Of a DNA stretch of 64,000 bases, positions 39,609 through 60,077 are shown piece after piece. The stretch is from Acidobacteriota bacterium (GTDB lineage: Bacteria > Acidobacteriota > Vicinamibacteria > Vicinamibacterales > CAVVIG01): positions 15,739 through 79,738 of the forward strand of contig JBDTVS010000051.1 of assembly GCA_040007095.1 (NCBI GenBank). Direction: 5' to 3'. Below the pieces are notes generated by a model. The model worked only from the letters and a program-made list of their open reading frames with translations, was not told the origin of the DNA and searched no databases. Every line of letters starts with the position of its first letter. Position 1 is the first letter of the stretch. The translations under genes and the position numbers were made by a program.

Positions 39609-41861
39609 GTGTCGAACCCTGCCGATCAGCCGCTGGTGTCAATCCTCTCCTTCTGCAAGAATTGCGCACCCACGATCCGCCGCAGCATCGACAGCGTCCT
39701 CGGTCAGTCTTACCGCCACCTCGAGTTCGTGGTGCAGGACGGCGCCTCCACCGATGGAACGCTCGAGATCCTGCAAGGCTACCGGGACGATCGGATCAAG
39801 ATCGTGTCTGAGCGAGACTCGGGTCCCAACGAAGCATTCTGGAAGGTCTTGAACCGGTGCCAGGGCGAGATCATCGGCACGTGCCTTGCGGACGAGGAAC
39901 TTCTCCCCGACGCCGTGAAGACCGCTGTCGAAATACTTCGAGCACACCCGGGCCTCGGCGCCGCGACGTGCGACGGCTACATCACCGATGCGGCCGGTGA
40001 CGTGGCGGGCACATTCGTCGCCGGCGAGTTCGATCTGGTCGACGGCCTGTTCGGGCGTTACTGCCCGTTCTGGCCCGGTTCGTTCTTTCGCCGTCAGGCG
40101 CTCGTCGACGTCGGCCTCGCGTATCACGAATGGTCGATCGACGCGCTCGAGTTCGAGGTGTGGTGTCGCCTCGGCACAGAGCACCACGTGAAGTACTTCC
40201 CGGTGTTGCTGTCGAAATACGCCGTGCACGCCGAGCAGTTGAGCAATACGCCGAAGATCTTCGACGTCAACATGAACAGTCGGATCGGGATCATCGAACG
40301 GCTGTTCTCGGAGAGCGGATTCGCGGGCGACCATCCTGCGACCAAGAGTGCGTGTATCTACAACCAGTACTATCTCTATTACAACCACGCGCGGGCGTAC
40401 AAGATCTTCGACCACATGGAGATGTTGTACGACCGGATGATGGTGTTGCTGAAGGATCTGGATCCGGCTGAATGGGAGAAACAGCGCCAGGCCCCCCGCC
40501 ACGAGGCGATCCACTCAATCGTCGCGCCGCCCATCCCCAAGGCGGTCTACGACGATTTCGCGACGCTGTACTATCGGCGCGGACAGATCCGGCAGGCGTT
40601 GGAGATGTGCGAGCGCGCCGACGATTCGTCGAGCGACCTGCTGGCGTGCCGAGCGGTGCTCCGACTCCCCGCGGCGACCGCCAACGATCCGCTGGCGATG
40701 CAGCAGCGCTGGGCCGCAAAGCACGTCATGGCACCGGCGATCGCGAGCGCGAACCTGCCACGACGCGCTGATCAGGGTGACCGGATGATCCGCATCGGCT
40801 ATCACTGCGCGTTCATGGACAGCGACACGATTCGCTTTCAGATGAGCGCCGTCATCAAACGGCACGACCGACACGAGTTCACCGTCATCGGCTATTCGCC
40901 GACTGAAGTTGCCGTCGATATCCGGGACGCATTCGACCTCGTCAAGGTGACGGGCGGACTCTCGGACGACCAGTTTGCGGCACTGGTCCGAGCCGACGGG
41001 ATCGATATCTTCGTGGAGATGACCGGCTTTTCGCCGCTCCATCGATTCGGCGCCATGGCGCTGCGCTGCGCCCCGATCCAGATCACATATATCAATCACC
41101 TGGGAACGAGCGGCGTGCCGAACGTCGACTACATTCTGGCCGACGAAGTGTCGCTGCCCGTGGACGAAGAGCGTTCTTATACCGAGAAGGTCTGGCGCCT
41201 GCCCGGTTGCTTCTTTTGCTTCAACTACGACATGGTGGAGCTGCCGCCGGTGGCCCCGCCGCCATCCCGCACCAACGGCTTCGTGACCTTCGGGTGCTTC
41301 GGCAGCGGCGGAAAAATCAATGACGACCTGATCGCGATCTGGGCGCGTGTGCTCGCCCGGGTGCCAGACTCGCGCCTCTACCTGCGCAATCAGGAGCTCA
41401 CGCCTCGGGACAACCGGCAGTTCATGATCGACAGGTTTCGCCGACATGGCATCGCGGCGGAGCGTGTCCGGGTGGCAGCCGGAGCGACGCGCCTCGAGAT
41501 CCTGCGTTCGTACGACGAAGTCGACATCAGCCTGGACACCTGGCCGTATTGCGGCGGCAACACCATTGCGGAGTCGATCTGGCAAGGTGTGCCGGTCGTG
41601 ACCCTGAAGGGCACGCGATTCGTCAGCCGCTACGGTGCCTCGTTGTTGCTCGCCGCCGGGTGTCCAGAGCTCGTCGGCGTGACGAAGGAGGCGTACATCG
41701 ACGTCGCCGCCGGGCTCGCAAGAGCACCGGAGCGGCTGGCTCACTACCGACAGCATCTGCGATCGATGGCGCGGGAGTTCGGGTTCAGCGATGCCGAGCG
41801 ATTCGCGCGGAAGCTCGACGAAGCGTATCGGTCGATGATGCGAACCGCTCACAGCCCGTAA
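39609..41861 (+). CDS. GT2 + TPR + GT41 (SPINDLY/OGT-like) fusion glycosyltransferase
   Basis: GT2 'VQDGASTDGT'. GT41 'RIGY', 'DIFVEMTG', 'CAPIQITY', 'TSGVPNVDY', 'FGCF....KIN' and 'DISLDTWPYCGGNTIAESIWQGVPVVTL'. Confidence 0.88.
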   Translation: MSNPADQPLVSILSFCKNCAPTIRRSIDSVLGQSYRHLEFVVQDGASTDGTLEILQGYRDDRIKIVSERDSGPNEAFWKVLNRCQGEIIGTCLADEELLPDAVKTAVEILRAHPGLGAATCDGYITDAAGDVAGTFVAGEFDLVDGLFGRYCPFWPGSFFRRQALVDVGLAYHEWSIDALEFEVWCRLGTEHHVKYFPVLLSKYAVHAEQLSNTPKIFDVNMNSRIGIIERLFSESGFAGDHPATKSACIYNQYYLYYNHARAYKIFDHMEMLYDRMMVLLKDLDPAEWEKQRQAPRHEAIHSIVAPPIPKAVYDDFATLYYRRGQIRQALEMCERADDSSSDLLACRAVLRLPAATANDPLAMQQRWAAKHVMAPAIASANLPRRADQGDRMIRIGYHCAFMDSDTIRFQMSAVIKRHDRHEFTVIGYSPTEVAVDIRDAFDLVKVTGGLSDDQFAALVRADGIDIFVEMTGFSPLHRFGAMALRCAPIQITYINHLGTSGVPNVDYILADEVSLPVDEERSYTEKVWRLPGCFFCFNYDMVELPPVAPPPSRTNGFVTFGCFGSGGKINDDLIAIWARVLARVPDSRLYLRNQELTPRDNRQFMIDRFRRHGIAAERVRVAAGATRLEILRSYDEVDISLDTWPYCGGNTIAESIWQGVPVVTLKGTRFVSRYGASLLLAAGCPELVGVTKEAYIDVAAGLARAPERLAHYRQHLRSMAREFGFSDAERFARKLDEAYRSMMRTAHSP

Positions 41862-41964
41862 GCGTGGCACTCCCGCGCTTTTCACGTCGGTGTCGTACGA
41901 CCGCGGCCCCTGTGAGCGGCGCGTCTCGCCCGTCTAGAGCAATTTGGAAAGCGAAACCCTCTGC

Positions 41965-41994
41965 CTTTGTGCTCTTGGTGTTTTTTGTGGTTCC
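41965..41994. repeat. 9-mer REP-like half-site
   Basis: CTTTGTGCTCTTGGTGTTTTTTGTGGTTCC, nearly identical to 30877-30904. Confidence 0.6.
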
Positions 41995-42116
41995 AAAGAG
42001 TCGCGCCCTGCTTGAGACCAGCATCACCACACACTGGTCAAGACTGGAGTGGTGATGCTGCGCAACCAGGTCGACAGTGGCCACGACCGCAACATCACAC
42101 TTACAGCCTCCTGAGT

Positions 42117-43397
42117 TCAGGGCTCCCGCGGGGTGTGATAGCTCGCCCATTCCTGCTGGAGCACGAGCAGGCTCTCGTTGGTTGATCCCGGCGACTTGAG
42201 AGCGGCGGCGAGATACAGCGAGTGGCGACGGGCGTCCCGGCGGAGATCGCTCGCCCGCCACGACTCCAAGGCCTCGTCGATCTGACCGCGGCGCTCCAGC
42301 AGCACGCCTCGTTCCCAGTGCACATCGAGCAGCTCTGGCGCCAGCCGAATGGCCGCCTCGTACATGTCGAACGCGAGATCGATGCGACCGTCGGCCGCAT
42401 ATGCCTGAGCAATCTCGCACGCTAGCGATGCTTCAGACGGCATCAGGCGCCACGCGACCTCGAGGATGTCGAGGGCCGTGCGCTCATCCCCGTCCATCCG
42501 CCGCCCGCGCGCGATCCGGATGTAGCCGTCGACCGCGAGCGCGGCCAGCCTCGGCTCGGGCAGGCGGCTGGACTCGTCGGCCACGGTCAGGCAGAAGGCA
42601 ACCGCCTCCCTGCGAGCGCCGAGATGCTTCAGATCGTCGGCAAAGCTCAGGACCGTTCCGATGCGACACGCCTGCAGCAGATCGCTTCGCCCTTCGAACA
42701 GTCCGGTCTCGGCGGCGAGATCGGCTATCGCGCGCAGTCGCCCCTGAACCAGGCGCGACACATTGGCCGGGATCCGGCTCAGTTGTCGGTCGTGCTGACC
42801 ATATTTCGAGGCGACGCCCGGCAAGTACGAGATCGCGCCGACCAGCGCGAGCCTGCACCAGAGCTCGAATTCACCGCAGTCCAGGTTCCAATCGCGAGTC
42901 TGGAGTCCGGCCAGTTCGAGCGACGTTCGACGAAACGTGGCAGCCGAGAAGTGCGGGCAGAACCGGTTGGCCATGTACGCGAGGAGATGGAAGGGCCGGC
43001 CCTTCACGGTGTCCACTACGCGGCCGTCGATATCGGTCAGATACGTGTCTCGGGTCACCGCGGCCACGTTCCGATCGGACTCGAGGGCCGCGACCGCCTC
43101 CGCAACAGCGTCGGGCAACAGTTCTTCGTCCGACAGGCAGGCGCACACGTAATCGCCGCCGCAGCGGCGCAGCGTCTGCCAGAACGCCGCCGCCGGGCCG
43201 CTATCGGGTTCCGATCGAAGGCTGATGCGCGGGTCGTCGTACTCCCGGAGCACTTCGAGCGTCCCATCCGTCGACGCCCCGTCCTGAATGATGTATTCGA
43301 TGTCCTGGTACGTCTGGGCGAGCACGCTTTCCACGCTGCGCCGTATCGTGCGCGCGCGGTTTTTGCAAAAGAGAAACACCGTGACTCGTGGCGTCAT
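42117..43397 (-). CDS. GT2 + TPR protein; paralog of the N-terminal part of 39609, ending where GT41 would begin
   Basis: 'FCKN.A.TIRRS', 'QDGASTDGT' and 'CLSDEELLPDAV'; TPR helices; ends 'LQQEWASYH'. Confidence 0.85.
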   Translation of the reverse strand: MTPRVTVFLFCKNRARTIRRSVESVLAQTYQDIEYIIQDGASTDGTLEVLREYDDPRISLRSEPDSGPAAAFWQTLRRCGGDYVCACLSDEELLPDAVAEAVAALESDRNVAAVTRDTYLTDIDGRVVDTVKGRPFHLLAYMANRFCPHFSAATFRRTSLELAGLQTRDWNLDCGEFELWCRLALVGAISYLPGVASKYGQHDRQLSRIPANVSRLVQGRLRAIADLAAETGLFEGRSDLLQACRIGTVLSFADDLKHLGARREAVAFCLTVADESSRLPEPRLAALAVDGYIRIARGRRMDGDERTALDILEVAWRLMPSEASLACEIAQAYAADGRIDLAFDMYEAAIRLAPELLDVHWERGVLLERRGQIDEALESWRASDLRRDARRHSLYLAAALKSPGSTNESLLVLQQEWASYHTPREP

Positions 43398-44020
43398 GCG
43401 CCTCCCGCAGATCGCGCCTCATCGGACAGCACAGGACCGTCGGGGAACCCCGGGTCCAGCTTGAGCTGATACCACTCCATCAGTCGAAGGAAGGCCGACT
43501 CCGCCCGTCGGCGCTGGCGCCAGTCCGACAACGCCGCATACGTGCCGTCCGCGAGGAAGCTGACCATCCCGTGCTCGCCAATCGCCGCGAGCAGTTTTTC
43601 GGCGTCGCCGAGCCTCTCCCCCGACGTGCCCGCATCGAGGAGAAATAGGGTTCCGAAACCGACGGACTGCAGACGGTCGACCGTCGCAGCCGGAACATTT
43701 TCCAGACGGTAGGGTCCGGAGACAGGGTATGCGTAAAACGTGACGTCGCAGTGGGCGATGGCGCGGATGGCACTCTCGTCGCGCGCGTGGCTCATGATGT
43801 GGAGCTTCGGCGCGGATGCATGCACCAGGATCTCGCCGAGAAAGGCCCGCATGCGTTCCATCGAGGCGGAACGCAGCACGAAGATCGGACGGTCCCAGAG
43901 CAATCGGTCCACGTGCACCGCTTCCAGGGACATGTCCCGCAGAAGCGTATCGAGCACTATTCCGATCGACTTCCCTGCCTGGCTGGCGGGACCTGGAGCC
44001 GGAGCACTTTCCGCTGGCAT
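43394..44020 (-). CDS. Hypothetical protein (GT9 N-half-like); paralog of 38676-39284
   Basis: Alignable by eye over the full length with 38676-39284; its stop overlaps the start of the GT2-TPR gene. Confidence 0.7.
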   Translation of the reverse strand: MPAESAPAPGPASQAGKSIGIVLDTLLRDMSLEAVHVDRLLWDRPIFVLRSASMERMRAFLGEILVHASAPKLHIMSHARDESAIRAIAHCDVTFYAYPVSGPYRLENVPAATVDRLQSVGFGTLFLLDAGTSGERLGDAEKLLAAIGEHGMVSFLADGTYAALSDWRQRRRAESAFLRLMEWYQLKLDPGFPDGPVLSDEARSAGGA

Positions 44021-44087
44021 GCGTCCTCGAATGATCAGGCGAAGATGTCTGGTTGAGTCGTCATGAGTTATCCGCATGCTCTCGAAA

Positions 44088-45653
44088 TCACAGCGGACGT
44101 GTGAACGCGACAAGACCACTTCGACCGAGAAGCTGAGTGACGCAACCCGGCGCCAGTTCCCTCACGCGCTCCAGCGCAGCTGCAGGGTCCCCCTCGACTG
44201 GACACAATGCCACACCGCCTGGCGCAAGATAATCCACCAGCGCCCGCACCCTGTCGAGGGGCGTGTCCAGACCGATCCAGGCCAACTCGATCAAAGGCTC
44301 GCCGACACCCGACCGGCTAATTCGCTCGAGGGCCGTTGCCGGCGATCCCTGGACAATCCGCGCCCATCCTCTGAAGTGGCAGCGCACTTCCAGGAACCTC
44401 GCGAGCTCGCCGGGATGGACGAGCAGCCGATCGCTGACGCCTTCCGGCCACGGGTTGACGAGGAACAACTCGGCGGCCGGACACGCCTTGAGGACGGTCA
44501 ACAACACGCCGGGGCTCGGAGAACCAAACGAGTAGAAGCTCCGCGGAAGGTCTCGAAGCACGATGCTGGCGACCGTCGCCAGCTGCTCGAACGCGGTTCG
44601 AGGCGACTCGCCTTCCGCCCCGATCCTGCTGACGAAATCAGCGGCCTCAGCGCCAGGCTCCCAGCCCTCTCCGAGGGGCTGCGCGGTCCGTCCGGATAGA
44701 GGCACGCCGCATCCAAAGCCTGGCGCTGAAGAGGCCTCCGATACGCACTCGGCAGTCGGAATCATCTGCTCGCCGAGACCCCAGTCGGGCCCGTTGGTCG
44801 CCGCCACGTTTCGGATCACCATCGGGTTCACGGTCGACGCGTCACGCGCACGTCGTCCATCGGCGTCGGGCCAGTGCTCCATGTGCAGTCCGAAGAGGCC
44901 GTCACTGCTGACGTCGAGCCACGGGTGCTGTTGCGACACGCGAAGCATCAGATCGTTGTCGTGCCAGCCCCATGGTCGATCCAGAGACTCATCGTAGCCC
45001 CTCACTTCGAACCACCGGTCGCGGTGCATCAGCTGGCCGCCTGAGAATCCCCCGAGGCAGCTGATGCCCAGGCGCTCAGGAGACAGCCCCGCAGCAAGCA
45101 AGGCTGCCAGCCGTCTCCATTCGCCGAGGTGTGGTCTGCGCTGGACGGTCGCCCACGGCACCTGGTACCGCCGCACGTAGCAAAACAGATCCGCGATCGG
45201 CACGGGGAGGGTGATCTCGCCGCGAAGGAGGCGGCCGAGCGCGGCCAACGCGGACTCCGACCACAGACAGTCCGAGTCGGTGAAGAAGATGAACTCGCCT
45301 CGGGCCCGGCGGACGCCCACATTCACCGCGCAGCTCGGGAGCCATCGAACCTGGCCATCTCGCGATCCAGCGACTTCCGGCGCAACCTGATAAAACGTGG
45401 TCATACGCCGCGCCGCGGGTCCGAACGGCACGTGGTTCGCCAGTGCCTGCGCGCTGGCCCAGTCGACGATCAGGACCTCGACCGCGTCAGACACGCCGGC
45501 GCGCTCGGCGCTGTCCGCCAGGAACGATACGGAGGTGCCAAGGCGGTAGAGATAGTCGCCCATGTAGTCATCGTTACGGCCGATGATGACGAACGAGACC
45601 AGCGGCCGACGCGACGCGGTGGGGTCAACCATCCACTGAGGGCCGTTCGTCAC
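44088..45653 (-). CDS. GT2-family glycosyltransferase with an unknown (methyltransferase-like) C-terminal domain
   Basis: 'VSFVIIGRNDDY', 'VLIVDW', 'NVGVRRARGEFIFFTDSD' and 'GYDE....WGWHDNDL'. Confidence 0.75.
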   Translation of the reverse strand: MTNGPQWMVDPTASRRPLVSFVIIGRNDDYMGDYLYRLGTSVSFLADSAERAGVSDAVEVLIVDWASAQALANHVPFGPAARRMTTFYQVAPEVAGSRDGQVRWLPSCAVNVGVRRARGEFIFFTDSDCLWSESALAALGRLLRGEITLPVPIADLFCYVRRYQVPWATVQRRPHLGEWRRLAALLAAGLSPERLGISCLGGFSGGQLMHRDRWFEVRGYDESLDRPWGWHDNDLMLRVSQQHPWLDVSSDGLFGLHMEHWPDADGRRARDASTVNPMVIRNVAATNGPDWGLGEQMIPTAECVSEASSAPGFGCGVPLSGRTAQPLGEGWEPGAEAADFVSRIGAEGESPRTAFEQLATVASIVLRDLPRSFYSFGSPSPGVLLTVLKACPAAELFLVNPWPEGVSDRLLVHPGELARFLEVRCHFRGWARIVQGSPATALERISRSGVGEPLIELAWIGLDTPLDRVRALVDYLAPGGVALCPVEGDPAAALERVRELAPGCVTQLLGRSGLVAFTRPL

Positions 45654-46082
45654 ACCGGTTCCTCGTCAGGCGATCGTGGGGCGGGACCTGGGGCAAATTG
45701 CGCGTACCAGCCTCGTGTGGTGTAGGGCACATCGACAACATCGTTCTTCAACTCGGCCGCAATCGCGTCCAGGATTCCGCTCAGCGTCGGTCCTGCCTGG
45801 CGAGCCAGGGTGGCATGCGATCGCCAGGCGTCCATGACCGCCTGTTTCGTCATGCTCGTCGAAAAAGTTGCGGAGAACGGCCGAAGCTCCTCAAACAAAC
45901 AACTGGCGCCCAGCACCGGCGTGGGGTCTTCACGACGTGTCCCGTACCCGTAGGCCGGTATGGCTGAGCGAATGATGGCTTCGATCCGCGCCTGCAACGG
46001 GTCATCCGGGTCACGGGGGTTCCAGAGACAGCAGAACCAATCTCTCGGTGCCACGACCCGCCGGCATTCCTTCAGTGTCGGC
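45650..46082 (-). pseudogene. C-terminal half of a class I SAM methyltransferase
   Basis: Begins at 'LKECRRVVAP..W...LWNPRD', a late motif; the SAM-binding N-terminus is missing. Confidence 0.6.
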
Positions 46083-46235
46083 TCACCGAACACCCACGCG
46101 CATGACGTCGCCATCCAGCAGCAGCACCGGGTAGCCGCGCGCCGACAGGCCGTCGCGCACCAGGCGGCTCACCGTGGACTTGCCAGCACCGGACAGACCG
46201 GTGATCCACCATACCGTCCCGTCGCCTCTCGCCAC
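46083..46235 (-). pseudogene. cysC: Adenylylsulfate kinase N-terminal fragment
   Basis: AGGAG RBS and GTG start; '[14 protein letters not shown]...LLDGDVMR', then a stop after about 50 aa. Confidence 0.75.
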
Positions 46236-46836: not shown

Positions 46837-48324
46837 ATGAACGCCAAGAACCGGCTGACGGCATGCGACGTCGTGATCCCGGCGCGCAACGCCGAGCCAT
46901 TCATCGCTTCCGCCATCCAGAGCGTCGTCGAGCAAAGCCTTCCAGCGTCTCGGATCATCATCGTCAACGACCGATCTACCGACGGCACGGCCGCCGCGGC
47001 CGCTGCATTCGGCAATCGTGTTGGCATTGTCGACGGCCACGGCGTGAGCGCCGGCGCCGCCAGGAATCTGGGCGTCCGCCACTCGGACAGCGAGCTGGTG
47101 GCGTTTCTCGACGCCGACGATGTCTGTCATCCCGGACGACTCGCTGCTCAAGTGCACGCGCTGCTCGAAAGCCCTGATGCCGGCATGGTGTTCTGCGACG
47201 GGGAATACGCCAATGCTTCCGGCCAACCGTCGGGAGTCGTCTTCAGCTGTCCGGAGTTCAATCGCGACGCCTTTCTTGGACAACTGTTCGAACGCAACCG
47301 TATCCTCAGCGCCTCGGTTTCCATGGTGCGCCGCTCGGCGTTCGATGTCGTGGGGGGGTTCGACGAACGGCTCACGCATGCCGAGGACTACGACCTGTGG
47401 ATTCGGATGGCCGCGTCCTCCCCTATCGAGCACGTCGCCCAGGCGTTGGTGAGGTACCGCGTGCATGCCCGCAACCTCAGCAACGACCGGGAAGCGTTGC
47501 GTCGTCGTGAAGTCGAGATTCTGGGCAAACACGCGATTCGAGACATCCGATCGGCCCTGCTCCACGCGCACGACAACCCCTCCAGGGTCGAGCTGGAGCT
47601 GTCACGTGTACTCTTTCGGATGGACCGCTATGTCGAGGGCGAAGCGCTCCTTCGCGGCATCCAGCCCGACGTACCGCATCAGGCACTGCGGCATTTCATG
47701 CTCGGCAACTTCGCCGTCAAGCGCGGCGATTTCGACACGGCTGCCCGGGAGTTCTCGCGGTGCCTCGACTGCGACACCACGTTCGCGCCGTCTCACAATA
47801 ATCTCGGCGTGATCGCGGCGCTGGAGAGCCGATACCAGGAGTCTCACGACCACTTCCTCAAAGCAGCCGACCTTCGACCGGAGTACTCCGATCCACGGCA
47901 CAATCTGGACGCGCTGCAACCGAGACGACTCGCGCAACTACAATACACGTTCGCGCCGCTTCGGCCGGTGCTGAGGCCCGATCGAAAAGATGGATCACGA
48001 CATTTGAGCCGAACGCTGGAACAAGTACGGGCGTCGGTTGGGCGCGGCGAGGGTGTGTCATTCCACGGCTATGAGGAACTCGAAGCGGACGGTATACATG
48101 TGCACGACATCATCGGTGGACTGAGCACTGCCGAGGTGGTCGAGGACTACCCAGCCTACCCGAAAGGGCCATGCGTCCTGGTTCTGCAGCACGATGGCAC
48201 CAATCAGCCGATTCACGTAGTCTGGGGTATCCCGGCGGGTCAGGAGTCGCCAGCGGTCGTAGTCACCGCTTACAGACCCGATCCTGCAAAATGGGATGAC
48301 GCATGGCGAAGGAGACGGACATGA
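46837..48324 (+). CDS. GT2 + TPR glycosyltransferase reading in-frame into a DUF4258-like domain
   Basis: GT2 'VVIPARN', 'NDRSTDGT', 'AFLDADD' and 'AEDYDLW'; TPR 'HNNLG'; no stop before the DUF4258-like region. Confidence 0.8.
48004..48324 (+). CDS. DUF4258-family putative toxin module (possible internal TTG start)
   Basis: '[10 protein letters not shown]...DI......[17 protein letters not shown]......PIHVVWG......[13 protein letters not shown]'. Confidence 0.7.
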
Positions 48325-50572: not shown

Positions 50573-50576
50573 TTCG

Positions 50577-50807
50577 ATGAAGACGACGGTATCCTCGAAG
50601 GGCCAGATCGTGCTGCCGGCGGAGCTTCGCCAGCAGGACCGCATCGAAGCCGGGCAGGAATTCGAAATCGAGCGGCTCGATCGCGGCGAGTACCGGCTGG
50701 TGCGGCGCACCGCCAGCCCGAACGAAGGCGTGGTGGATTGGTTGTTGGCCTGCCCCGAGAAGGGATTCTTCGTCCCGATAGAATCTGAGTGGACAGACAC
50801 GTTGTGA
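50577..50807 (+). CDS. AbrB/MazE/SpoVT-family antitoxin
   Basis: 'MKTTVSSKGQIVLPAELR....I..G'. Confidence 0.9.
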   Translation: MKTTVSSKGQIVLPAELRQQDRIEAGQEFEIERLDRGEYRLVRRTASPNEGVVDWLLACPEKGFFVPIESEWTDTL

Positions 50808-51217
50808 CCTTCCTGGTCGACGCGAGCGTGCTCAGCGAACCCACGAAAGTGTCCCCGAACCCGAGGGTCGTCGAATGGCTCAGGCGCCATGAGTCGGAAA
50901 TCGCCATCGACCCCATCATTCTGGGCGAGGTTCGGTACGGAATCTTGATGCTACCCAAAGGAAAGCGGCGAGCTGGCCTCGAGCGCTGGTTCGATACCGG
51001 CGTTCAAAGGCTTCAATGCCTGCCGTGGGAAGCGGAAACGGGACTGCGATGGGCAGCGCTGCTCGCCAGTCTTCGCGCCGCAGGCCGCGCCGTGCCGATC
51101 AAGGACAGCCTCATCGCGGCCTCAGCGCTCGCTCACGGTCTGGTCGTCGCCACACGCAACCGCGCTGACTTCCAGAAAACGGGCGTCACACTCGTCGATC
51201 CGTTCACAGAAGGATGA
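50804..51217 (+). CDS. vapC: VapC PIN-domain toxin
   Basis: 'FLVDASVLSE', 'GEVRYG', 'DSLIAASA' and 'VATRNRADF'. Confidence 0.9.
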   Translation: MTFLVDASVLSEPTKVSPNPRVVEWLRRHESEIAIDPIILGEVRYGILMLPKGKRRAGLERWFDTGVQRLQCLPWEAETGLRWAALLASLRAAGRAVPIKDSLIAASALAHGLVVATRNRADFQKTGVTLVDPFTEG

Positions 51218-52750: not shown

Positions 52751-53764
52751 ATGCCGGCACGCGCGTTCATCACAGGCATCACAGGGATGGTGGGGTCGCA
52801 CCTCGCCGATTTTCTCCTCGCGCAGACTGACTGGGAAATCATCGGCCTGTCCCGGTGGCGAAGCCCGATGGACAACATCGAGCATCTGTTCCCGCGGATT
52901 AACGATGGGGATCGAGTCACGCTGGTCCAGGGCGACCTGCGCGACAGCCTGTCGATGCAGCGTGCGGTTGACCTTGCGCGGCCCGACTACGTGTTTCACC
53001 TGGCAGCACAGAGCTACCCGCGCGTCAGCTTCGACTCTCCGCTCGAGACGCTCGAGCCGAACATTCTCGGTACCTGCCGGCTGCTCGAATGCCTCCGGTT
53101 ACGGAAGGATCTCAGCCCGGTTGTTCACGTCTGCTCCTCATCCGAAGTGTTCGGTCGAGTGCCTCGCGAGCGTCTCCCGATCGACGAATCGTGCTCCTTT
53201 CATCCAGCGTCTCCATATGCCATTTCGAAAGTGGCGACGGATCTCCTGGGCCGCTACTACGCGGAGGCCTACGGTCTGAAGATTGTGACGACCAGGATGT
53301 TCACGCACACCGGACCACGCCGCGGCGACGTGTTCGCCGAGTCGACTTTTGCCAAGCAGATCGCGATGATCGAGTCGGGCCAGCTCCCACCGATCGTCAA
53401 GACTGGCAATCTCGACTCGCTCAGAACCTGGGCCGACGTTCGCGATGCAGTCCGCGCGTATTTCATGCTGGTAACGGTCGATCCGATTCCCGGCGAGGTC
53501 TACAACATCGGCGGCGCCTATTCGTGCACCATCGGCGACATGCTGCAGACGCTGCTGTCGTTCGCCACGGTCCAGGGCATCCGCGTCGAGACCGACCCCG
53601 AACGCCTGCGGCCGATCGACGCCGATCTCCAGGTGCCCGACACGACGAAGTTTCGCACCCACACCGGCTGGGCTCCCGAAATCCCCTTCGAGCAGACCAT
53701 GCGCGATCTGCTTCAGTACTGGCGGGACCGGATGGCCAACGGTCAGCGGTTTCTTCAACGGTGA
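52751..53764 (+). CDS. GDP-sugar 4,6-dehydratase of the DmhA/WcbK (GDP-manno-heptose) type
   Basis: 'ITGITGMVGSHLADFLL..TDW.I.GL.RW..PMDNI.HL', 'HLAAQSYP..SF', 'SSSEV', 'SPYAISK' and 'THTGPRRGDVF.EST.AKQIA'. Confidence 0.88.
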   Translation: MPARAFITGITGMVGSHLADFLLAQTDWEIIGLSRWRSPMDNIEHLFPRINDGDRVTLVQGDLRDSLSMQRAVDLARPDYVFHLAAQSYPRVSFDSPLETLEPNILGTCRLLECLRLRKDLSPVVHVCSSSEVFGRVPRERLPIDESCSFHPASPYAISKVATDLLGRYYAEAYGLKIVTTRMFTHTGPRRGDVFAESTFAKQIAMIESGQLPPIVKTGNLDSLRTWADVRDAVRAYFMLVTVDPIPGEVYNIGGAYSCTIGDMLQTLLSFATVQGIRVETDPERLRPIDADLQVPDTTKFRTHTGWAPEIPFEQTMRDLLQYWRDRMANGQRFLQR

Positions 53765-53789
53765 GGGTCTTCAACGTAAATCGAAATGC

Positions 53790-53845
53790 AACCACGAAAG
53801 CACTGTTGAATGCATTCGCTTCGTGTTCTTTGTGTCCATGGTGGG
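53790..53845. repeat. Degenerate 9-mer REP-like palindrome
   Basis: AACCACGAAAGCAC ... CTTCGTGTTCTTTGTGTCCATGGTGG. Confidence 0.5.
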
Positions 53846-53872
53846 CATTCGTCATGACCGACATGATGCGCC

Positions 53873-54853
53873 GTGATTCTCGCTGAGGACGCGCGGATCT
53901 TCGTGGCCGGCGGCGCCGGCATGGCCGGCAGCGCCATCGTCGAGGCGTTGATCAAGCGGCGGCCACACGGGCGCGTGCGAGCCACGTATCGCGCCACGGC
54001 GCCGGCGGTCGTCGACCAGCGTGTCGAGCACGTGCGGCTCGACCTGACGGATGGACCAGCGCTCACCGCCGCTTTGCAAGGATGCGACGCGGCGATCCTT
54101 GCGGCATCCGAGAGCGGCGGGATCGGGATGCTGACCAGCGAGCCGTGGCGCCAGGTGAAGCCCAATCTCGTGATCGCGGCGACCTGGCTGGAGGCGCTGC
54201 ACGACGCGGGCGTCCGCCGCGCAGTGTTTGTCGGCTCCGCGACCGTGTATCAACCCTTCGATGGAGCCATCGAGGAGGATCAACTCGACTGGAACCAGGA
54301 TCCGAGCCCCGAAGCGTTCGGCGTCGGGTGGGTGATGCGCACGTCGGAGAAGCTGTGCGAGTTCTGGGGCCGCACGGCAGGGCTCGACATCGTGAGAGTG
54401 CGGGCCGCCAACATCTACGGTCCGCGCGCGCGCTTCGACCCGGCGCGCTCCAACTTCATCCCCGCGCTGATTCGAAAAGCGGCCGACCGGCTCGATCCGT
54501 TCGAGGTCTGGGGATCGCCGGAGGTCACGAGGGATGTCGTCTACCGCGCTGACTTCGGCGAAGCGATCGTTCGGCTTCTGGAGGCGCCATCGACCAATGG
54601 ACAGGTGTTCAACGTAGGATCGGGCCGCGGCGTCCGCGTTGACGAAGTCGTGGCGACGGTGCGGCGTGTCGCGGAATGCGCACAGTCCCGCGTGGTCTAC
54701 GTCGCCGCCGGCCCCACTTCATCACGCAGCCGCGTGCTCAATTGCGACCACCTGTTCGATACAATACGCTGGTTGCCTTCCACATCAATCGAGCAGGGGA
54801 TTCGCGAGACGCTGAACTGGTGGCGCGCGAACAGGACGACATGGCCACGATAA
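53873..54853 (+). CDS. Third Fcl-like NDP-sugar reductase/epimerase
   Basis: GGAGMAG and 'NIYGPRARFDP..SNFIPAL...VWG....RD'; the motif reads VGWVM. Confidence 0.85.
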   Translation: MILAEDARIFVAGGAGMAGSAIVEALIKRRPHGRVRATYRATAPAVVDQRVEHVRLDLTDGPALTAALQGCDAAILAASESGGIGMLTSEPWRQVKPNLVIAATWLEALHDAGVRRAVFVGSATVYQPFDGAIEEDQLDWNQDPSPEAFGVGWVMRTSEKLCEFWGRTAGLDIVRVRAANIYGPRARFDPARSNFIPALIRKAADRLDPFEVWGSPEVTRDVVYRADFGEAIVRLLEAPSTNGQVFNVGSGRGVRVDEVVATVRRVAECAQSRVVYVAAGPTSSRSRVLNCDHLFDTIRWLPSTSIEQGIRETLNWWRANRTTWPR

Positions 54854-55608
54854 AGGTCGGCGAGCACGGTGCCATCGCGCTCACCGCGCGCAGCGAGGAA
54901 GACGCCTTTGCCGAGCTGGCCGTCAGGCTCAAGAACAGCGGGATCCCGCCGGGCGAAATCCTCGGCAACCTCGGCTTGTTCATGCCGTCGAAGCACCTCG
55001 CCCGGCTGCTGTTCTTTCGGGACATCTACCCGCTCGTCCTGCACACCCACGGCATCATTGCCGAGTTCGGCGTGCGCTGGGGCCAGACGCTCGCCTTCCT
55101 CTCGAACCTGCGCAGCATCTACGAGCCCTTCAACCGGCACCGGCGTATCGTCGGCTTCGATACGTTTGAAGGGTTCGTGGGCGTCGCGCCGGAAGATGGC
55201 GCGCGGCCGGCGTGCCGAGACGGCGATTTCTCGGTCCCCTCGTCCTACGAAGACGAACTGACCCGAGTGCTGGCGCTTCACGAGCAACTGAACCCGATCT
55301 CGCATCTGCGTCGGTTCGAGTTGGTGAAAGGCGACGCCGTACACACGGTGCCCGCGTGGTTCGATGCCCATCCCGAAGCGGTGGTGTCGCTGGCGATCTT
55401 TGATTTCGATATCTACGCTCCGACCAAAGCCGCCCTTCTGGCCGTCAAGCCGCGGCTCTTCAAGGGATCGGTGCTCGTGTTCGACGAACTGTCCGACGAT
55501 GTGTTTCCCGGGGAAACGGTGGCGGTGCAGGAAGTCCTGGGCCTGAACACGCTTCGTATCCAGCGCTCACCGAGCGTATCGCGCGTCTGCTACGCGGTCA
55601 TCGAATGA
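54841..55608 (+). CDS. TylF/MycF-family sugar O-methyltransferase
   Basis: 'IAEFGVRWG', 'GFDTFEGF', 'LVKGD', 'DFDIYAPT' and 'VFDE'. Confidence 0.82.
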   Translation: MATIKVGEHGAIALTARSEEDAFAELAVRLKNSGIPPGEILGNLGLFMPSKHLARLLFFRDIYPLVLHTHGIIAEFGVRWGQTLAFLSNLRSIYEPFNRHRRIVGFDTFEGFVGVAPEDGARPACRDGDFSVPSSYEDELTRVLALHEQLNPISHLRRFELVKGDAVHTVPAWFDAHPEAVVSLAIFDFDIYAPTKAALLAVKPRLFKGSVLVFDELSDDVFPGETVAVQEVLGLNTLRIQRSPSVSRVCYAVIE

Positions 55609-56387
55609 CGCCGACGGCGCGCGCCGCCCGCGAGTGGGCGATCCGATGTTCCCGAGCGAGCGGCCAGGGCCATTTGCCCAGCTCGTTTTCGATCATCGAG
55701 CTCGCGGTGTCCGCCTACGCCGTGATGCGTCACGACCCCGCCGCGCCACGATGGCCCGACCGCGACCTGTTCATTCTCAGCAAGGGTCACGCGGCGCTCG
55801 GCTACTACTGCGTGCTGGCGCAGCTTGGATACTTCCCGCCGGCCGAGGTCGAGCAATTCGGCGCGTACCGATCCGCCTTCGGTTGTCATCCTGACCGGCT
55901 CAAGGTACCCGGCGTCGAGGCGTCGTGCGGCTCGCTCGGGCATGGGATCGGCATTGCCGTCGGCATGGCCCTCGCCTTGCGAATCCAAGGCAGCGACCGA
56001 CGCGTGTTCGTCCTGGTCGGCGACGGCGAGGCCAACGAAGGATCGGTGTGGGAAGCGGTCATGGTCGCCTCGGATCGCCGGCTGGCCAACCTCACGATTC
56101 TGTACGATCACAATCGATCGCAGGTGCGCTGCCTGCAAATCCCGAATCCGGCCGAGCGGTTCGCCGCCTTCGGGTGCGCCACCACGGAGGTCGACGGCCA
56201 CGACGAGGACGCGATTGCGGCCGCCGTGCGGGAGCCTGCCGACACCGTGAAGGTGGTGGTCGGCCGGACCATCAAGGGGTACGGCTGCGCCTCCATGGAA
56301 CAGAACTTCTTCGAGTGGCACCGCAAGTCGCCTTCGCCCGAGACCTACGAGGAGCTGATGTCCGAGCTCAATGCGAAAACAGTTTAG
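55605..56387 (+). CDS. Transketolase-like TPP enzyme, N-terminal subunit
   Basis: 'DLFILSKGHA', 'GSLGHG' and the TPP motif 'GDGEANEGSVWEA...N'. Confidence 0.92.
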   Translation: MTPTARAAREWAIRCSRASGQGHLPSSFSIIELAVSAYAVMRHDPAAPRWPDRDLFILSKGHAALGYYCVLAQLGYFPPAEVEQFGAYRSAFGCHPDRLKVPGVEASCGSLGHGIGIAVGMALALRIQGSDRRVFVLVGDGEANEGSVWEAVMVASDRRLANLTILYDHNRSQVRCLQIPNPAERFAAFGCATTEVDGHDEDAIAAAVREPADTVKVVVGRTIKGYGCASMEQNFFEWHRKSPSPETYEELMSELNAKTV

Positions 56388-57237
56388 AGACACCGTTACG
56401 GAGCTGGCCGAGGCCGACGAACGCGTCGTCCTCGTGTTCGGCGACATCTCCGTCTTCCTGTTCGAGCCGTTCGTTCGTCGCTTCCCGAACCGGTTCTACA
56501 ACCTCGGGATTTGTGAGAACACACTGGTCAGCGTCGCGGCCGGCCTGGCGTCGCAGGGACTGATTCCATTCGTTCATACGATCGCCCCGTTCGTCACGGA
56601 ACGCTGCCTCGAGCAGATCAAGATTGACGTGGGCTACAACCGCTTCCCGATCAATATCGTCACCTGCGGCGCGACCTACGATTACGCGTGGGACGGCCCG
56701 ACCCATCAAGCCCTGGCGGACATGGGCGCGCTTCGGCTCATTCCTGACATCGAGATCGTGCAGCCGGGGACGCGGCAGGAAACCGACCGACTGCTGAGGG
56801 ATCGGTACGCGAGCGGCACGCCGACCTACTTCCGGCTGTCGGACCATCCGCACGGGGCGATTTTTCCCGTAGAGTTCGCGCGCGGTGTCGTGGTCCGCGA
56901 CGTGGGCGGACCGGTCACCGTCGTGACCGCCGGACCGATCCTGGCCAACGTCTTGCCGGCAGTAGAGTCGCTGCCGGTCAACGTGATCTACTTCTCGACC
57001 ATCAAGCCGCTCGATGGCGAGATCCTGTCAGCGTTCGCGCACACCCGGTTTCTCGTCGTCCACGACGCGACCGGACTCTTCGAAGAGGTCTGCGAACATA
57101 CGGCGGGGCCGGTCACCCGCCTCGGGCTGCCCGATCGCTTCGTGTCGTGTTACGGAACGATTCAGGACATTCGACGCGAGATCGGCCTCGACCCAGAGCA
57201 CATTCGGCACGTGGTGTCCGAGCTGCTGTCACGCTGA
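56371..57237 (+). CDS. Transketolase-like TPP enzyme, C-terminal subunit
   Basis: 'RFYNLGICE', 'R..EQIK', 'DGPTHQ' and 'TYFRL'. Confidence 0.92.
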   Translation: MRKQFRDTVTELAEADERVVLVFGDISVFLFEPFVRRFPNRFYNLGICENTLVSVAAGLASQGLIPFVHTIAPFVTERCLEQIKIDVGYNRFPINIVTCGATYDYAWDGPTHQALADMGALRLIPDIEIVQPGTRQETDRLLRDRYASGTPTYFRLSDHPHGAIFPVEFARGVVVRDVGGPVTVVTAGPILANVLPAVESLPVNVIYFSTIKPLDGEILSAFAHTRFLVVHDATGLFEEVCEHTAGPVTRLGLPDRFVSCYGTIQDIRREIGLDPEHIRHVVSELLSR

Positions 57238-57264
57238 ACGCAAAGAGCGGGTTTACGAATCAGG

Positions 57265-57308
57265 GCTGATGGCACATCGTGAATGGCGAATCGCGAACGG
57301 CTGATGGC
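57265..57308. repeat. Short degenerate heptamer tandem repeat
   Basis: GCTGATGGC...GAATGGC GAATCGC GAACGGC TGATGGC at a gene junction. Confidence 0.45.
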
Positions 57309-58941
57309 TCGGAATCAGGGTGCCGACACGCGTATCGGAACGGACGGCTTTCAGGGGCTGCCGGCGGAGCTTGCCGAGGCGCTCATCGAAAGCCGCTGGT
57401 CCGATGCGCTGGCGTGCAGCGACCGCCTCATGGCTCGGACTGCGGCGAACGCCCGTCTGTTCTTCATCCGTGGCGTGCTGCTGCGTCTTGCGTGGCGCAT
57501 GGACGAGGCGATGGAAGCCTATCGGCGCAGCATCGACCTCGGCTACGAGGGAATCGGTCCGTACCGTGAGCTCTTCCAGCACCTCGAGAAGCGGGGTCAG
57601 ATCGACGACGCACTGGCGTGCTGGCGGCTGGCGTTCGATCGCGGCTATTCGACGGCCCGCTTCCACTCGATGGCGCTGGACGCCTGGCTGAAACGGCCCG
57701 ATGCCACCGCCGACGAGCTCCTGCACGCCCACAGCGTCTGGGCGGAGCGATACGGACGGAGCGATCCCTCCGTGCCGCCTTTGCCGATCGAGCCCTTCGA
57801 CGGCTCCCGCCCGTTGCGTGTCGGTTACGTGTGCTCGTTCTGGGAGGCGACCGCCATCCGATTCATGCTGCTGCCGGTCTTGAAACGGCACGACCGACAT
57901 CGGGTCATCGCCTGTCTCTATCTGAGCGGCCCGCTTCGCACGGGAGAGACCTGGCGGGAGCTGTACGAGCCGCATGCCGCCCTCGTCCGCGACGTCGAGC
58001 GTCTGAGCGACCGCGAGTTCGTGGAACTGACGCGCGCCGATCGCATCGACGTGCTCGTCGATCTGAACGGCCACTCGGGGATCAACCGGTACGCGGCCAT
58101 GGCGTCGAGATGTGCACCCGTGCAGGCCGTCTATCTCAACTACACGTCGACGACGGCGGTTCCCAACATCGACTATGTGATCGGCGACCGCTGGTCGCCG
58201 CCGCCCGATACCGAGCACACGTTCACCGAGAGAGTCGAGCGCGTGTCCGGCTGTTTCTTCAGCTTCGACTACTCCGACGATTCCCGCCTGCCACCAGTGT
58301 CGCCGGCGCCGGTGGTGCGTAGTGGACGGGTGACCTTCGGCTGTTTCGGCGCCGGTACCAAGATCAATGGGTCGCTCGTCGATTGGTGGTGCCGGATCTT
58401 GCGGGCCGTGCCACACGCCAGTCTCTTCATCCGGAACTTCGAGCTATCGCCAGAGGACAATCGGCGGGCGCTCGCGCGCCAGTTCATCGACCGGGGGATC
58501 GATACCGCCCGCCTGCGCCTCGTCGGAAAAGGCACCCGGCAGGAAGTCGTCAGCGCCTACGCGGACGTCGACCTCGCGCTCGATACGTATCCGTATTGCG
58601 GCGGCAACACGACTGCGGAGGCACTCTGGCAGGGCGTGCCGGTCGTCACGCTGCGCGGACCGCGATTCTCTTCGTCCTACGGCGCGTCGCTGCTCCACGC
58701 GGCAGCGTGCCCGGAGCTCATCGCACACAGCGTAGACGAGTACATCGAGCTGGCCGTCGAGTTGGCGCAATCGACCGACCGGCTCGTGGCGTATCGAGCG
58801 CACCTGCGATCATCGGTGATCGCGCATGGATTGGGCAGCGCTGAGATCTTCACGCCGCAGTTCGAAGACAGCCTGATTGCGATGCGAATGCGGGCTGGCG
58901 ATCGGCCAGACCGACACGTCCCCGCTGGATTGCACACTTGA
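57283..58941 (+). CDS. TPR + GT41 (SPINDLY/OGT-like) glycosyltransferase
   Basis: TPR helices; 'LRVGY', 'IDVLVDLNGH', 'CAPVQ', 'FGCF....KIN' and 'DLALDTYPYCGGNTTAEALWQGVPVVTL'. The start may be the ATG at 57304. Confidence 0.9.
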   Translation: MANRERLMARNQGADTRIGTDGFQGLPAELAEALIESRWSDALACSDRLMARTAANARLFFIRGVLLRLAWRMDEAMEAYRRSIDLGYEGIGPYRELFQHLEKRGQIDDALACWRLAFDRGYSTARFHSMALDAWLKRPDATADELLHAHSVWAERYGRSDPSVPPLPIEPFDGSRPLRVGYVCSFWEATAIRFMLLPVLKRHDRHRVIACLYLSGPLRTGETWRELYEPHAALVRDVERLSDREFVELTRADRIDVLVDLNGHSGINRYAAMASRCAPVQAVYLNYTSTTAVPNIDYVIGDRWSPPPDTEHTFTERVERVSGCFFSFDYSDDSRLPPVSPAPVVRSGRVTFGCFGAGTKINGSLVDWWCRILRAVPHASLFIRNFELSPEDNRRALARQFIDRGIDTARLRLVGKGTRQEVVSAYADVDLALDTYPYCGGNTTAEALWQGVPVVTLRGPRFSSSYGASLLHAAACPELIAHSVDEYIELAVELAQSTDRLVAYRAHLRSSVIAHGLGSAEIFTPQFEDSLIAMRMRAGDRPDRHVPAGLHT

Positions 58942-58946
58942 ATGCC

Positions 58947-59006
58947 GAACCACCAAGCACACCAAGAACGCAAAGAATCCGGAGGGCTTTGTGATCTTTG
59001 TGGTTC
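58947..59006. repeat. 9-mer REP-like palindrome
   Basis: GAACCACCAAGCACACCAAGAACGCAAAG ... CTTTGTGATCTTTGTGGTTC. Confidence 0.75.
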
Positions 59007-59075
59007 ATTGAACCGTGATCCCGCGGCGCGCTACTGCCGAATGCCGCGACTTCCGGCGGCGGAGTGTCTGTTCCC

Positions 59076-60077
59076 ATGATCATCAGCCGCACACCTTTTC
59101 GGGTGTCGCTCTTTGGAGGGGGCACCGACTTTCCCGTGTGGTACCGCGAACACGGAGGGCTCGTTGTCTCTGCGACGATCAACAAGTACTGCTATCTGAA
59201 CGTCCGCTACCTCCCGCCCTTCTTCGACTATACGCACCGCATCCGCTACACCCAGCAGGAGTACGTCAACTCGGTCGAGGCGATCAAGCATCCGTCCGCG
59301 CGGGAATGTATCCGGTACATGGGGATTGCAGGCGGCCTCGAGGTGCAGCACAACTCGGACGTGCCGGCGATGTCAGGGCTGGGATCCAGCTCCGCGTTCA
59401 CGGTCGGACTTCTCCACGCGTTGCACGGTTTGACCGGTCGCATTGCCGGCAAGCGGCAGCTCGCGACACAAGCGATCGACGTCGAGCAGAACCGGATCAA
59501 GGAGTCGGTTGGATCGCAGGACCAGATTGCCGCGGCATTCGGCGGCGTCAACACGATCACGTTCGGACCCGGCGACGAATTCGACGTCGCGCCGCTGATG
59601 CTGAGCCCGACTGCCCTGGCGACGATGGAATCCCATCTCCTGCTGTGCTTCACGGGGTTCCAACGCAATGGAACGGACATGGCCGCGGACATGCTCCTCA
59701 ATCTGTCTCAGCACAACGCTGAACTGAGGGACATCCAGCACATTGCCTCGCAGGCGGTGGGGGTGATCGGCCACCATCCCCTGGACATGGCGGAACTCGG
59801 CCGGCTGCTCGATGCCCAGTGGCAGCTCAAACGGCGCCTGAGCGCGCTCATCGCCACGCCGATGATCGTCGAGAGCTACGACATCGGCATGCGGGCAGGG
59901 GCGTACGGCGCCAAGCTGCTCGGCGCCGGCGGCGGCGGATTCATGCTGTTCCTGGCCCCGCCAGAACGCCATGCCGCCATCCGCGAAGCGCTGGCACGGC
60001 TGCTGTTCGTGCCGTTCAGGTTCGAGATGGGCGGCAGCCGAATCATCTACTACACGCCGTCTGAACCGTACTCGTAA
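59076..60077 (+). CDS. hddA: GHMP kinase of the D-glycero-D-manno-heptose-7-P 1-kinase (HddA) type
   Basis: 'MIISRTPFRVSLFGGGTD', 'SGLGSSS', 'GSQDQ.AAAFGG' and 'GAKLLGAGGGGF'. Confidence 0.88.
   Translation: MIISRTPFRVSLFGGGTDFPVWYREHGGLVVSATINKYCYLNVRYLPPFFDYTHRIRYTQQEYVNSVEAIKHPSARECIRYMGIAGGLEVQHNSDVPAMSGLGSSSAFTVGLLHALHGLTGRIAGKRQLATQAIDVEQNRIKESVGSQDQIAAAFGGVNTITFGPGDEFDVAPLMLSPTALATMESHLLLCFTGFQRNGTDMAADMLLNLSQHNAELRDIQHIASQAVGVIGHHPLDMAELGRLLDAQWQLKRRLSALIATPMIVESYDIGMRAGAYGAKLLGAGGGGFMLFLAPPERHAAIREALARLLFVPFRFEMGGSRIIYYTPSEPYS

Follow-up and report, generated by a model that had tools for sequence, protein, structure and literature searches.

A clade of GT41 glycosyltransferases associated with deoxyheptose-type sugar genes, with two members in a flagellin-glycosylation island of an acidobacterial genome

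Which sugar would glycosyltransferases of family 41 (GT41) transfer, and onto which acceptor, when their active-site motifs depart from the canonical ones and their genes lie among sugar genes close to a flagellar gene cluster? This question is raised by a stretch of acidobacterial DNA of 64,000 nucleotides (hereinafter the window), which corresponds to positions 15739-79738 of contig C51 in an 8.56-Mb genome assembly of 243 contigs and 94% completeness. We called its genes by the GC content of third codon positions (GC3) and by Pfam matches. Among at least 120 FlhA homologues, the three named ones at 76% identity all belong to Vicinamibacterales, so that the host is probably an acidobacterium of this order; an alphaproteobacterial host, suggested by the names of homologues of one GT41 protein (P0001, below), was rejected on these grounds. 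In the literature consulted, including PMC9715652 and PMC4875605, the GT41 enzymes OGT, SPINDLY (SPY) and HMW1C/NGT modify proteins and draw on UDP-GlcNAc, UDP-Glc or GDP-fucose as the sugar donor. We report that the two GT41 proteins of the window belong to a previously undescribed GT41 clade, whose dedication to a deoxyheptose-type gene module is strongly supported, and that the copy of the module in this genome lies within a flagellin-glycosylation island. The answer that we favor, with about even confidence, is that a portable cytoplasmic module makes one or more GDP-6-deoxyheptose-type sugars, which the dedicated GT41 clade would transfer together with GT2 enzymes, and that it is put to use here in modifying flagellin.

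The two GT41 proteins and their clade

The original prediction for this DNA had singled out two GT41 genes bearing four unusual motif strings; both genes lie where it placed them and all four strings are present. The first encodes a GT2-GT41 fusion of 750 amino acids (P0001; 39609-41861, plus strand; GT2 62.6 bits, Glyco_transf_41 132 bits) and the second a TPR-GT41 protein of 552 amino acids (P0002; 57283-58941, plus strand; weak TPR, Glyco_transf_41 124.7 bits), both exceeding the curated GT41 cut-off of 25 (Pfam PF13844 / CAZy GT41). The genome has no further GT41 gene, and the two products are 43% identical over 442 columns. Their motifs read GYHCAFMDSDTIRF and FGCFGSGGKIN in P0001, and GYVCSFWEATAIRF and FGCFGAGTKIN in P0002.

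We located these departures by a HMMER alignment to Arabidopsis SPINDLY, a GT41 protein O-fucosyltransferase of solved structure (7Y4I, 8DTF-8DTI), with residues numbered as in PMC9715652. In the two window proteins, D491 is replaced by Phe, H495 by Asp or Thr, S496 by Thr or Ala, N661 by Gly, T747/T748/T749 by Gly/Asn/Thr and the guanine-stacking H728 by Val or Ile; K665 and Y744 are retained. The same source describes the H495A and H495F mutants of SPY as dead, S496 as orienting the acceptor serine and K665 as essential. The departures recur among 120 distinct homologues found with P0002 as the query: S489 becomes Cys in 99 of them, D491 Phe in 104, H495 Asp in 59 and Pro in 32, S498 Arg in 103, N661 Gly in 102 and T748 Asn in 109, with the Lys of K665 retained in 113 and a single canonical row (P0049) in the set. 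Thus, neither the Asp nor the His of the GYVSxDFxxH motif (SPY D491/H495, OGT D554/H558) is conserved in the clade, which has Asp, Pro or Thr in place of H495, Thr or Ala in place of S496, Gly in place of T747 and Val, Ile or Leu in place of H728, and which shares K665 and Y744 with SPY. Other GT41 groups are also non-canonical in the first motif, e.g., GYVSSFFQDHNWMK in combination with FGCLASQYK; the loss of Asp-Phe is therefore not peculiar to the clade, whereas the combination of departures is.

The clade is also recovered phylogenetically. In a quick IQ-TREE analysis of 94 GT41 domains (of 104 domain rows) from 79 genomic loci and both window proteins, with the characterised GT41 enzymes (SPY, OGT, TtOGT, XcOGT, NGT and FlmG) left out, the 40 rows with the signature PY.GGN[TS] fall on one side of a branch with a support of 95 in the Shimodaira-Hasegawa-like approximate likelihood ratio test (SH-aLRT), with a core of 38 supported at 100. 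This clustering was matched in none of 500 label shuffles. P0001 groups with betaproteobacterial GT2-GT41 fusions (support 95), an architecture frequent among clade members, and P0002 with a protein from an Acidobacteriota metagenome-assembled genome (MAG; support 90). The signature in the 120 homologues and the branch support of 95 bear out the earlier proposal of a separate GT41 subfamily whose members have the same changes in the active site, and the motifs mark a large conserved clade rather than two odd genes. The combined signature GYxCSF..DTIRF, FGCFGSGGK and PYCGGNT could serve to annotate hundreds of 'SPINDLY-family' genes now called O-GlcNAc transferases.

The best solved-structure matches of P0002 are the Thermobaculum terrenum OGT (TtOGT, 5DJS; 3.6e-62) and SPINDLY (7Y4I; 4.5e-58), followed by weaker matches to XcOGT (1.9e-34), human OGT (~1e-29) and HMW1C/NGT (~1e-3). 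An AlphaFold2 model of P0002 with a predicted local distance difference test score (pLDDT) of 89.9 and a predicted template-modeling score (pTM) of 0.89 has a TPR array followed by a bilobed GT-B domain, as in SPY and OGT, and superposes over its full length, across ~520 columns, on SPY (template-modeling score, TM, 0.80-0.83) and TtOGT (TM 0.81/0.85). The model points to an intact fold in P0002, with the changes confined to residues of the pocket. The TPR array is far shorter in the clade than in SPINDLY, and the acceptor of the clade may not be a protein; its donor, from gene context, is likely a GDP-sugar as in SPINDLY. TtOGT resembles P0002 in size and in its short TPR array, but its GYVS...H motif still contains the His, and the position of the clade's conserved Lys is taken by Met. 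The original prediction had allowed that these proteins might be catalytically dead; with the essential Lys in 113 of the 120 homologues and a confident SPY-like model for P0002, the clade is not obviously so.

Seven homologues that are 62-68% identical to P0002 (P0026-P0028, P0033-P0035 and P0037) lack the essential Lys as well as the clade Asn and are possibly inactive paralogues; P0002 retains both residues. Among the other GT41 types, a Sedimentisphaerales contig (L072) carries about a dozen tandem GT41 domains, and a Pelobacter contig (L079) has a single open reading frame (ORF) of ~3750 amino acids with at least six.

Deoxyheptose-type genes around the clade

The window codes for a set of sugar enzymes, all on the plus strand, that resembles a GDP-6-deoxyheptose pathway. 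A DmhA-type GDP-heptose 4,6-dehydratase (52760-53764) matches the GDP-D-glycero-D-manno-heptose 4,6-dehydratase 7US5 at 8e-107, as compared to 3.7e-44 or weaker for GDP-mannose dehydratases. An HddA-like heptose kinase of the GHMP superfamily (59064-60077) finds 3K85 as its best solved relative (7.3e-39), then 4USK and 4N3O, and scores 130 bits against the NCBIfam HddA model (cut-off 600). A GmhA-like sedoheptulose-7-phosphate isomerase with a SIS domain (30095-30790; Pfam SIS_2, 3.2e-27) is the sole gmhA-type match in the genome; its NCBIfam scores are 217 bits for phosphoheptose isomerase (cut-off 276) and 187 bits for TIGR00441 (cut-off 209). Two Fcl-like, i.e., GDP-fucose-synthase-like, epimerase/reductases of the short-chain dehydrogenase/reductase (SDR) type (36750-37697 and 37694-38701; Pfam Epimerase) have GDP-L-fucose synthases as their best solved relatives (9.4e-37 and 1.9e-33), and a third Fcl-like reductase (53873-54853) is likewise closest to GDP-fucose synthases. 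The remaining members are an S-adenosylmethionine-dependent methyltransferase (48595-49521), an RmlC-like 3,5-epimerase (49895-50404), a TylF-like O-methyltransferase (54676-55608) and a split transketolase-like thiamine pyrophosphate (TPP) enzyme, whose N-terminal part (55605-56387) and C-terminal part (56371-57237) together comprise Transketolase_N, Transket_pyr and Transketolase_C. The NCBIfam matches of the split transketolase are under their cut-offs; it is kept together with methyltransferase and Fcl genes in six to seven clade loci. Most of this list had been anticipated: the GmhA-, HddA-, DmhA- and Fcl-like genes, the epimerase and the methyltransferases are present, but the GmhA-like gene and two of the Fcl-like genes lie outside the range to which the original prediction had assigned them, and it did not include the split transketolase (55605-57237), the Maf-type gene (30946-33759) or the NeuB/CMP-synthetase/ATP-grasp block (60810-63952). 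The RmlC-like epimerase was considered as a heptose marker and rejected, because it scores alike against the GDP-heptose epimerases of Campylobacter jejuni (5.3e-31) and dTDP-type RmlC (3e-30).

A scan of species genomes with the clade alignment yielded the 79 loci, each with up to 10 kb of flank per side, against which every island protein was searched by tblastn. The clade accounts for 37 of them, namely L005-L040 (36 loci on 33 contigs, three pairs sharing a contig) and the tree-assigned L056; the other 42 carry non-clade GT41 genes. At least one module gene lies within 10 kb of the GT41 gene in 30 of the 37 clade loci as compared to none of the 42 others; all 30 belong to the set of 36, and L056 is without any. 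Within these 36, HddA-like genes (at least 40% identity) are found at 19 loci, DmhA-like genes (at least 50%; most at 67-72%, with a full range of 55-72%) at 16, and one or the other at 23. The methyltransferase 48595 type is present in 17, the RmlC-like type in 12, the TylF-like methyltransferase, transketolase-N, Fcl1 and SDR37694 types in seven each, the transketolase-C type in six and the Fcl2 type in five; homologues of the SDR proteins encoded at 36750 and 37694 with at least 50% identity occur in seven clade loci each. The predicted co-occurrence of the GT41 clade with hddA and dmhA is thereby recovered, and it extends over Pseudomonadota, Acidobacteriota, Verrucomicrobiota, Nitrospirota, Thermodesulfobacteriota and Spirochaetota.

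Conservation of gene order is evident at individual loci. In a Spirochaetia MAG (L013), nearly the whole gene set of the window forms a single collinear run: ABC-2 permease and ATPase; HddC-like, DmhA and GT41; Fcl2, TylF-like methyltransferase and transketolase-N/-C; then Fcl1, SDR, RmlC, methyltransferase, HddA and GT2. A metagenome contig (L084) codes for a P0002 orthologue that is 78% identical and keeps the adjacency of GT41 and HddA; the genes from the transketolase through the methyltransferase are also retained there, with 75-86% identity. The tailoring genes vary among the relatives, with pairs of pyruvate dehydrogenase (PDH) E1-like alpha and beta subunits, B12-radical-SAM proteins, an aldo-keto reductase, a C-methyltransferase, an aminotransferase and FkbM methyltransferases being found in different loci. 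Therefore, the donor is likely a branched or methylated derivative of a deoxyheptose. TPP enzymes add two-carbon branches to keto-sugars.

The flagellar island and the question of the acceptor

The first 25 kb of the window are occupied by flagellar and chemotaxis operons (FlhF, FlhA, FlhB, FliR, FliP, CheB, CheR, CheA, MCP, FlgE, FliI, FliG and FliF), after which come a sigma-54 activator (26073-27491) and CheX/response-regulator genes. Beside the flagellar genes stand a Maf-type (MptE-like) protein, putatively a flagellin nonulosonic-acid transferase, that bears FG-GAP repeats at its C terminus (30946-33759, plus strand; 937 amino acids; PF01973 117 bits; PDB 5MU5 2.1e-7) and, on the minus strand, genes for a CMP-sugar synthetase-like protein (60810-61532), an ATP-grasp protein (61549-62616) and a NeuB-family nonulosonate synthase (62543-63952). 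Between the Maf-type gene and this block lie ~27 kb of sugar and transferase genes. We know of no description of FG-GAP repeats on characterised Mafs; in relatives, the open frames bearing Maf range from 608 to 1346 amino acids. Maf homologues are found in nine of 60 relatives, and in all three contexts fetched (G055, G038 and G051) a stretch of GT2 or GT2-TPR-like genes, with SDR genes too in G038, intervenes between Maf and the CMP-synthetase/ATP-grasp pair. NeuB follows that pair in G055 and G038, and the fetched stretch of G051 ends before that point; upstream of Maf there are chemotaxis genes in G038 and an FlbD-like activator in G051, with neither seen in G055. The module of the window is thus nested in a flagellin-glycosylation island. 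For this window the reported lack of an exporter also stands, with no Wzm/Wzt homologue on contig C51 and no multi-pass membrane protein among 27 island proteins tested. A sigma-54 promoter scan of the window gave 22 matches as compared to 22.6 expected, i.e., no sign of flagellar regulation.

From the clade, its gene neighborhood and the modeled fold, we infer a donor, an acceptor and an order of steps. The GmhA-like isomerase would act first, then the HddA-like kinase, with a phosphatase and a guanylyltransferase supplied from elsewhere in the genome; the DmhA-like 4,6-dehydratase, the RmlC-like epimerase and the three Fcl-like reductases would follow, and the two methyltransferases and the split transketolase would tailor the sugar. 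A GDP-deoxyheptose derivative is the probable donor. The resulting deoxyheptose-containing oligosaccharide might be built on the filament protein, either directly or via the first sugar attached to it, the TPR-GT41 protein (57283-58941) being the candidate for the acceptor-specific first transfer and the GT2-GT41 protein (39609-41861), along with the GT2 and GT2-TPR proteins, the candidates for extending the chain. For flagellin, or the first sugar on it, as the acceptor in this genome, we put the odds at just short of even. The same module is located in glycan loci with ABC-2 exporters in other phyla and stands here, exporter-free, within a variable Maf...NeuB stretch.

Several results weigh against this proposal. 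On the side of the pathway, every NCBIfam match of the sugar genes is under its curated cut-off. An HddC-type nucleotidyltransferase (NTP_transferase) was not found on contig C51, and the best match in the genome to the HddC-like protein of a relative is 29% identical and on a different contig; an HddC-like gene is present in five clade loci of other genomes. Pfam scans of the island ORFs returned no HAD-type family, no search having been aimed at GmhB. The contig stops ~500 bases past the window, with the remainder of the island beyond view. On the side of the enzymes, the clade is without the very His whose replacement (H495A/F; PMC9715652) kills SPY. On the side of the flagellum, searches of the 94%-complete assembly with PF00669 and with the flagellin of one relative turned up no flagellin gene. 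The sole Flagellin_N match in the genome (C51:4548-4934), ~11 kb before the window and after an FlgK-like ORF, looks like FlgL; given the full set of flagellar genes, the flagellin gene was probably lost in an assembly gap. In other genomes, homologues of FlhA, FlhB, FliP, FliI, FliF, FliG, FlgE, Maf, NeuB and the CMP-synthetase are found in none of the 79 loci, flagellins lie ~205 kb (G004) and ~350 kb (G005) from the clade locus, and Enhydrobacter aerosaccus ATCC 27094, with two loci in the clade (L010 and L021), has no Flagellin_N match. Genes for an ABC-2 permease and/or ATPase are found in 17 of 37 clade loci as compared to two of the 42 others, and the genome under study itself has six Wzm/Wzt-like pairs elsewhere, which are possible exporters of the product.

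These results revise the earlier view of the clade as a whole. The flagellar link does not hold as a clade property with 0 of 79 loci having a flagellar, Maf or NeuB homologue, and a cytoplasmic protein acceptor fails as one in the face of the 17 clade loci with ABC-2 genes and of the flagellin-less genome with two loci; flagellin or another protein as acceptor retains local support, from the missing exporter and the Maf...NeuB scaffold, but not support across the clade. Because the flagellar link is not general and ABC-2 genes occur in 17 of the 37 clade loci, the heptose ending in lipopolysaccharide (LPS) or capsule is a live possibility for most clade members, and, in view of the exporter link elsewhere, a glycan acceptor has to be taken seriously as an alternative for the clade.

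The most direct form of the protein hypothesis, whereby both GT41 proteins place GDP-deoxyheptose directly on Ser/Thr of flagellin or hook in the cytoplasm and the whole subfamily shares this function, accordingly faces difficulties, and we consider it unlikely. It would fit the action of the characterised GT41 enzymes on proteins (PMC9715652 and PMC4875605), the N-terminal helical repeat array and SPY-like overall fold modeled for P0002, the island without a membrane protein, the flagellar context with its Maf, and the GT41 genes in enterobacterial flagellin glycosylation islands (PMC4875605). However, the clade shows no flagellar linkage elsewhere, is present in one genome that gave no flagellin match and keeps company with ABC-2 exporter genes, and H495 and S496, residues of the SPY active site and acceptor-peptide site, are replaced.

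Conversely, the product might in this genome as well be an exported surface polysaccharide, a deoxyheptan resembling an O-antigen or a capsule, with a primer enzyme and a Wzm/Wzt pair encoded elsewhere and with Maf and NeuB as mere neighbors. ABC-2 permease and ATPase genes adjoin GT41 in L013 and L035, and the distance is no more than ~2-3 kb in L010, L011 and L015; the P0001-like betaproteobacterial loci L011 and L012 carry ABC-2 exporter genes, ~2 kb downstream on the map of L011; and FkbM/RfbT-like methyltransferases are found in 10 loci. ABC-dependent loci are commonly without a primer gene of their own, and the six Wzm/Wzt-like pairs could provide for export. Against this, none of the 27 tested island proteins is a multi-pass membrane protein, the module sits within the Maf...CMP-synthetase/ATP-grasp(/NeuB) scaffold that three relatives show, not next to it, and in L084, the closest relative, an MptE-like gene precedes GT41 by 3 kb, with no exporter within 10 kb. 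We doubt that this reading applies to the present genome. A second glycan locus of the genome (G000:C190:14612-63185) has Gmd-like, transketolase-like and NeuB-like genes with two ABC-2 exporter pairs.

A third possibility is that the GT41 proteins use another donor, CMP-pseudaminic or CMP-legionaminic acid as does FlmG or UDP-GlcNAc as does OGT, with the heptose genes serving the GT2 proteins only. NeuB and a CMP-synthetase are encoded in the same island, FlmG is a flagellin transferase combining TPR and GT-B (PMC7591256), and PF13844 has a match in the Caulobacter control genome. Yet NeuB and CMP-synthetase homologues are found in 0 of 79 loci as compared to heptose genes in 23 of 36, Maf is already present for the nonulosonate, and the phosphate-binding motif is unlike that of both OGT and SPY, leaving this option highly improbable.

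The preferred reading, of a portable module that is used locally in flagellin glycosylation, can be extended tentatively. The clade might be the first GT41 lineage to act on glycans instead of proteins, comprising GDP-(6-deoxy)heptosyltransferases which, joined to a GT2 domain, would polymerise deoxyheptan chains that ABC-2 systems export in six or more phyla, and which would have been co-opted in this genome for a cytoplasmic heptose chain on flagellin; we regard this as a speculative scenario that is somewhat unlikely in its entirety. If the favored donor is correct, the GT41 family gains a new donor class, and if the exporter link is functional, a new acceptor class too. The island would then illustrate the reuse of a surface-glycan module inside a flagellin glycosylation island. 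The cultured Enhydrobacter aerosaccus ATCC 27094 is on offer as a test organism.

Known counterparts, origin and remaining genes of the island

The GDP-6-deoxyheptose pathways behind capsules and O-antigens of Campylobacter jejuni, Yersinia pseudotuberculosis and Burkholderia pseudomallei share with the island the DmhA-, HddA- and GmhA-like proteins and the RmlC-homologous epimerase, and share with the clade relatives an ABC-type exporter. In contrast to these pathways, the island adds the split transketolase, three Fcl-like reductases and two methyltransferases, HddC was not found on the contig, and the transferases are the GT41-clade and GT2-TPR proteins. As far as is known, those pathways use other transferases. 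Flagellin islands with Maf, FlmG or GT41 provide the second counterpart, having Maf, a NeuB-family synthase and a CMP-synthetase beside flagellar genes as in the window; unlike them, the clade shows no flagellar linkage in other genomes. FlmG of Caulobacter has the TPR and GT-B architecture of P0002 (PMC7591256) and transfers pseudaminic or legionaminic acid to flagellin (PMC7591256 and bioRxiv 10.1101/2022.03.25.485807). GT41 and GT2 genes occur in the enterobacterial flagellin islands surveyed by De Maayer and Cowan (2016; PMC4875605), where the GT41 proteins are predicted to transfer GlcNAc derivatives and mostly have methyltransferase domains, unlike those of the window. Full-text literature searches returned, judged by title and abstract, no paper linking GT41 with heptose; for 6-deoxy-heptose and flagellin glycans the matches were, by title, reviews on capsules, and among the papers listed for an O-antigen role none assigned it to GT41.

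Horizontal acquisition is the most likely origin of the module. At E<=1e-40 none of the 60 relatives had a match, nor did any of 400 sampled genomes of the class at E<=1e-70, with only three candidates scored per genome. The sugar island includes two genes for PIN-domain (VapC-like) toxins, an observation that we counted for acquisition: one at 50789-51217 (plus strand; PF01850 7.6e-12) and the second, paired with a ribbon-helix-helix (RHH) antitoxin, at 60149-60801 (plus strand; PF01402, PF01850). The GC content of the island is 0.625-0.657 and that of its surroundings 0.62-0.69, with no clear foreign-DNA signal.

The remaining genes of the island are of less certain relation to the module. 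An NKWYS-family protein (34470-35363, plus strand; PF10364 2e-16) is followed by a 368-residue protein with no assigned family (35480-36586, plus strand), for which there is a weak hint of an O-methyltransferase only (PF00891 0.011); homologues of the latter are found in five clade loci and adjoin the GT41 gene in L010 and L035. A minus-strand gene just upstream of the GT2-GT41 gene, and on the strand opposite to it, codes for a soluble protein of 202 residues (38676-39284) that is a paralogue, from stretches shared by eye, of the product of 43394-44119. Neither of these two soluble proteins of ~200-240 residues has a Pfam family; an Atlas structure search gave sub-threshold likeness to the Rossmann-like N-terminal domains of radical-SAM/B12 and GT9 proteins. 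The second of them lies between two GT2 genes in a minus-strand operon with overlapping stops and starts, which comprises a GT2-TPR protein (42117-43397), the gene at 43394-44119, a GT2 protein (44088-45653) with homologues in 10 clade loci, and a further uncharacterised protein (45650-46114). On the plus strand, another GT2-TPR protein bears a C-terminal DUF4258 (46837-48324; GT2 6.1e-25, TPR_2, DUF4258 2.6e-15), which could be a true fusion or the result of a missed stop or frameshift; DUF4258 is otherwise familiar from small proteins resembling toxin-antitoxin components. The last of the GT2 glycosyltransferases (51214-52638, plus strand; PF00535 4.7e-12) has a 75% identical homologue in L084.

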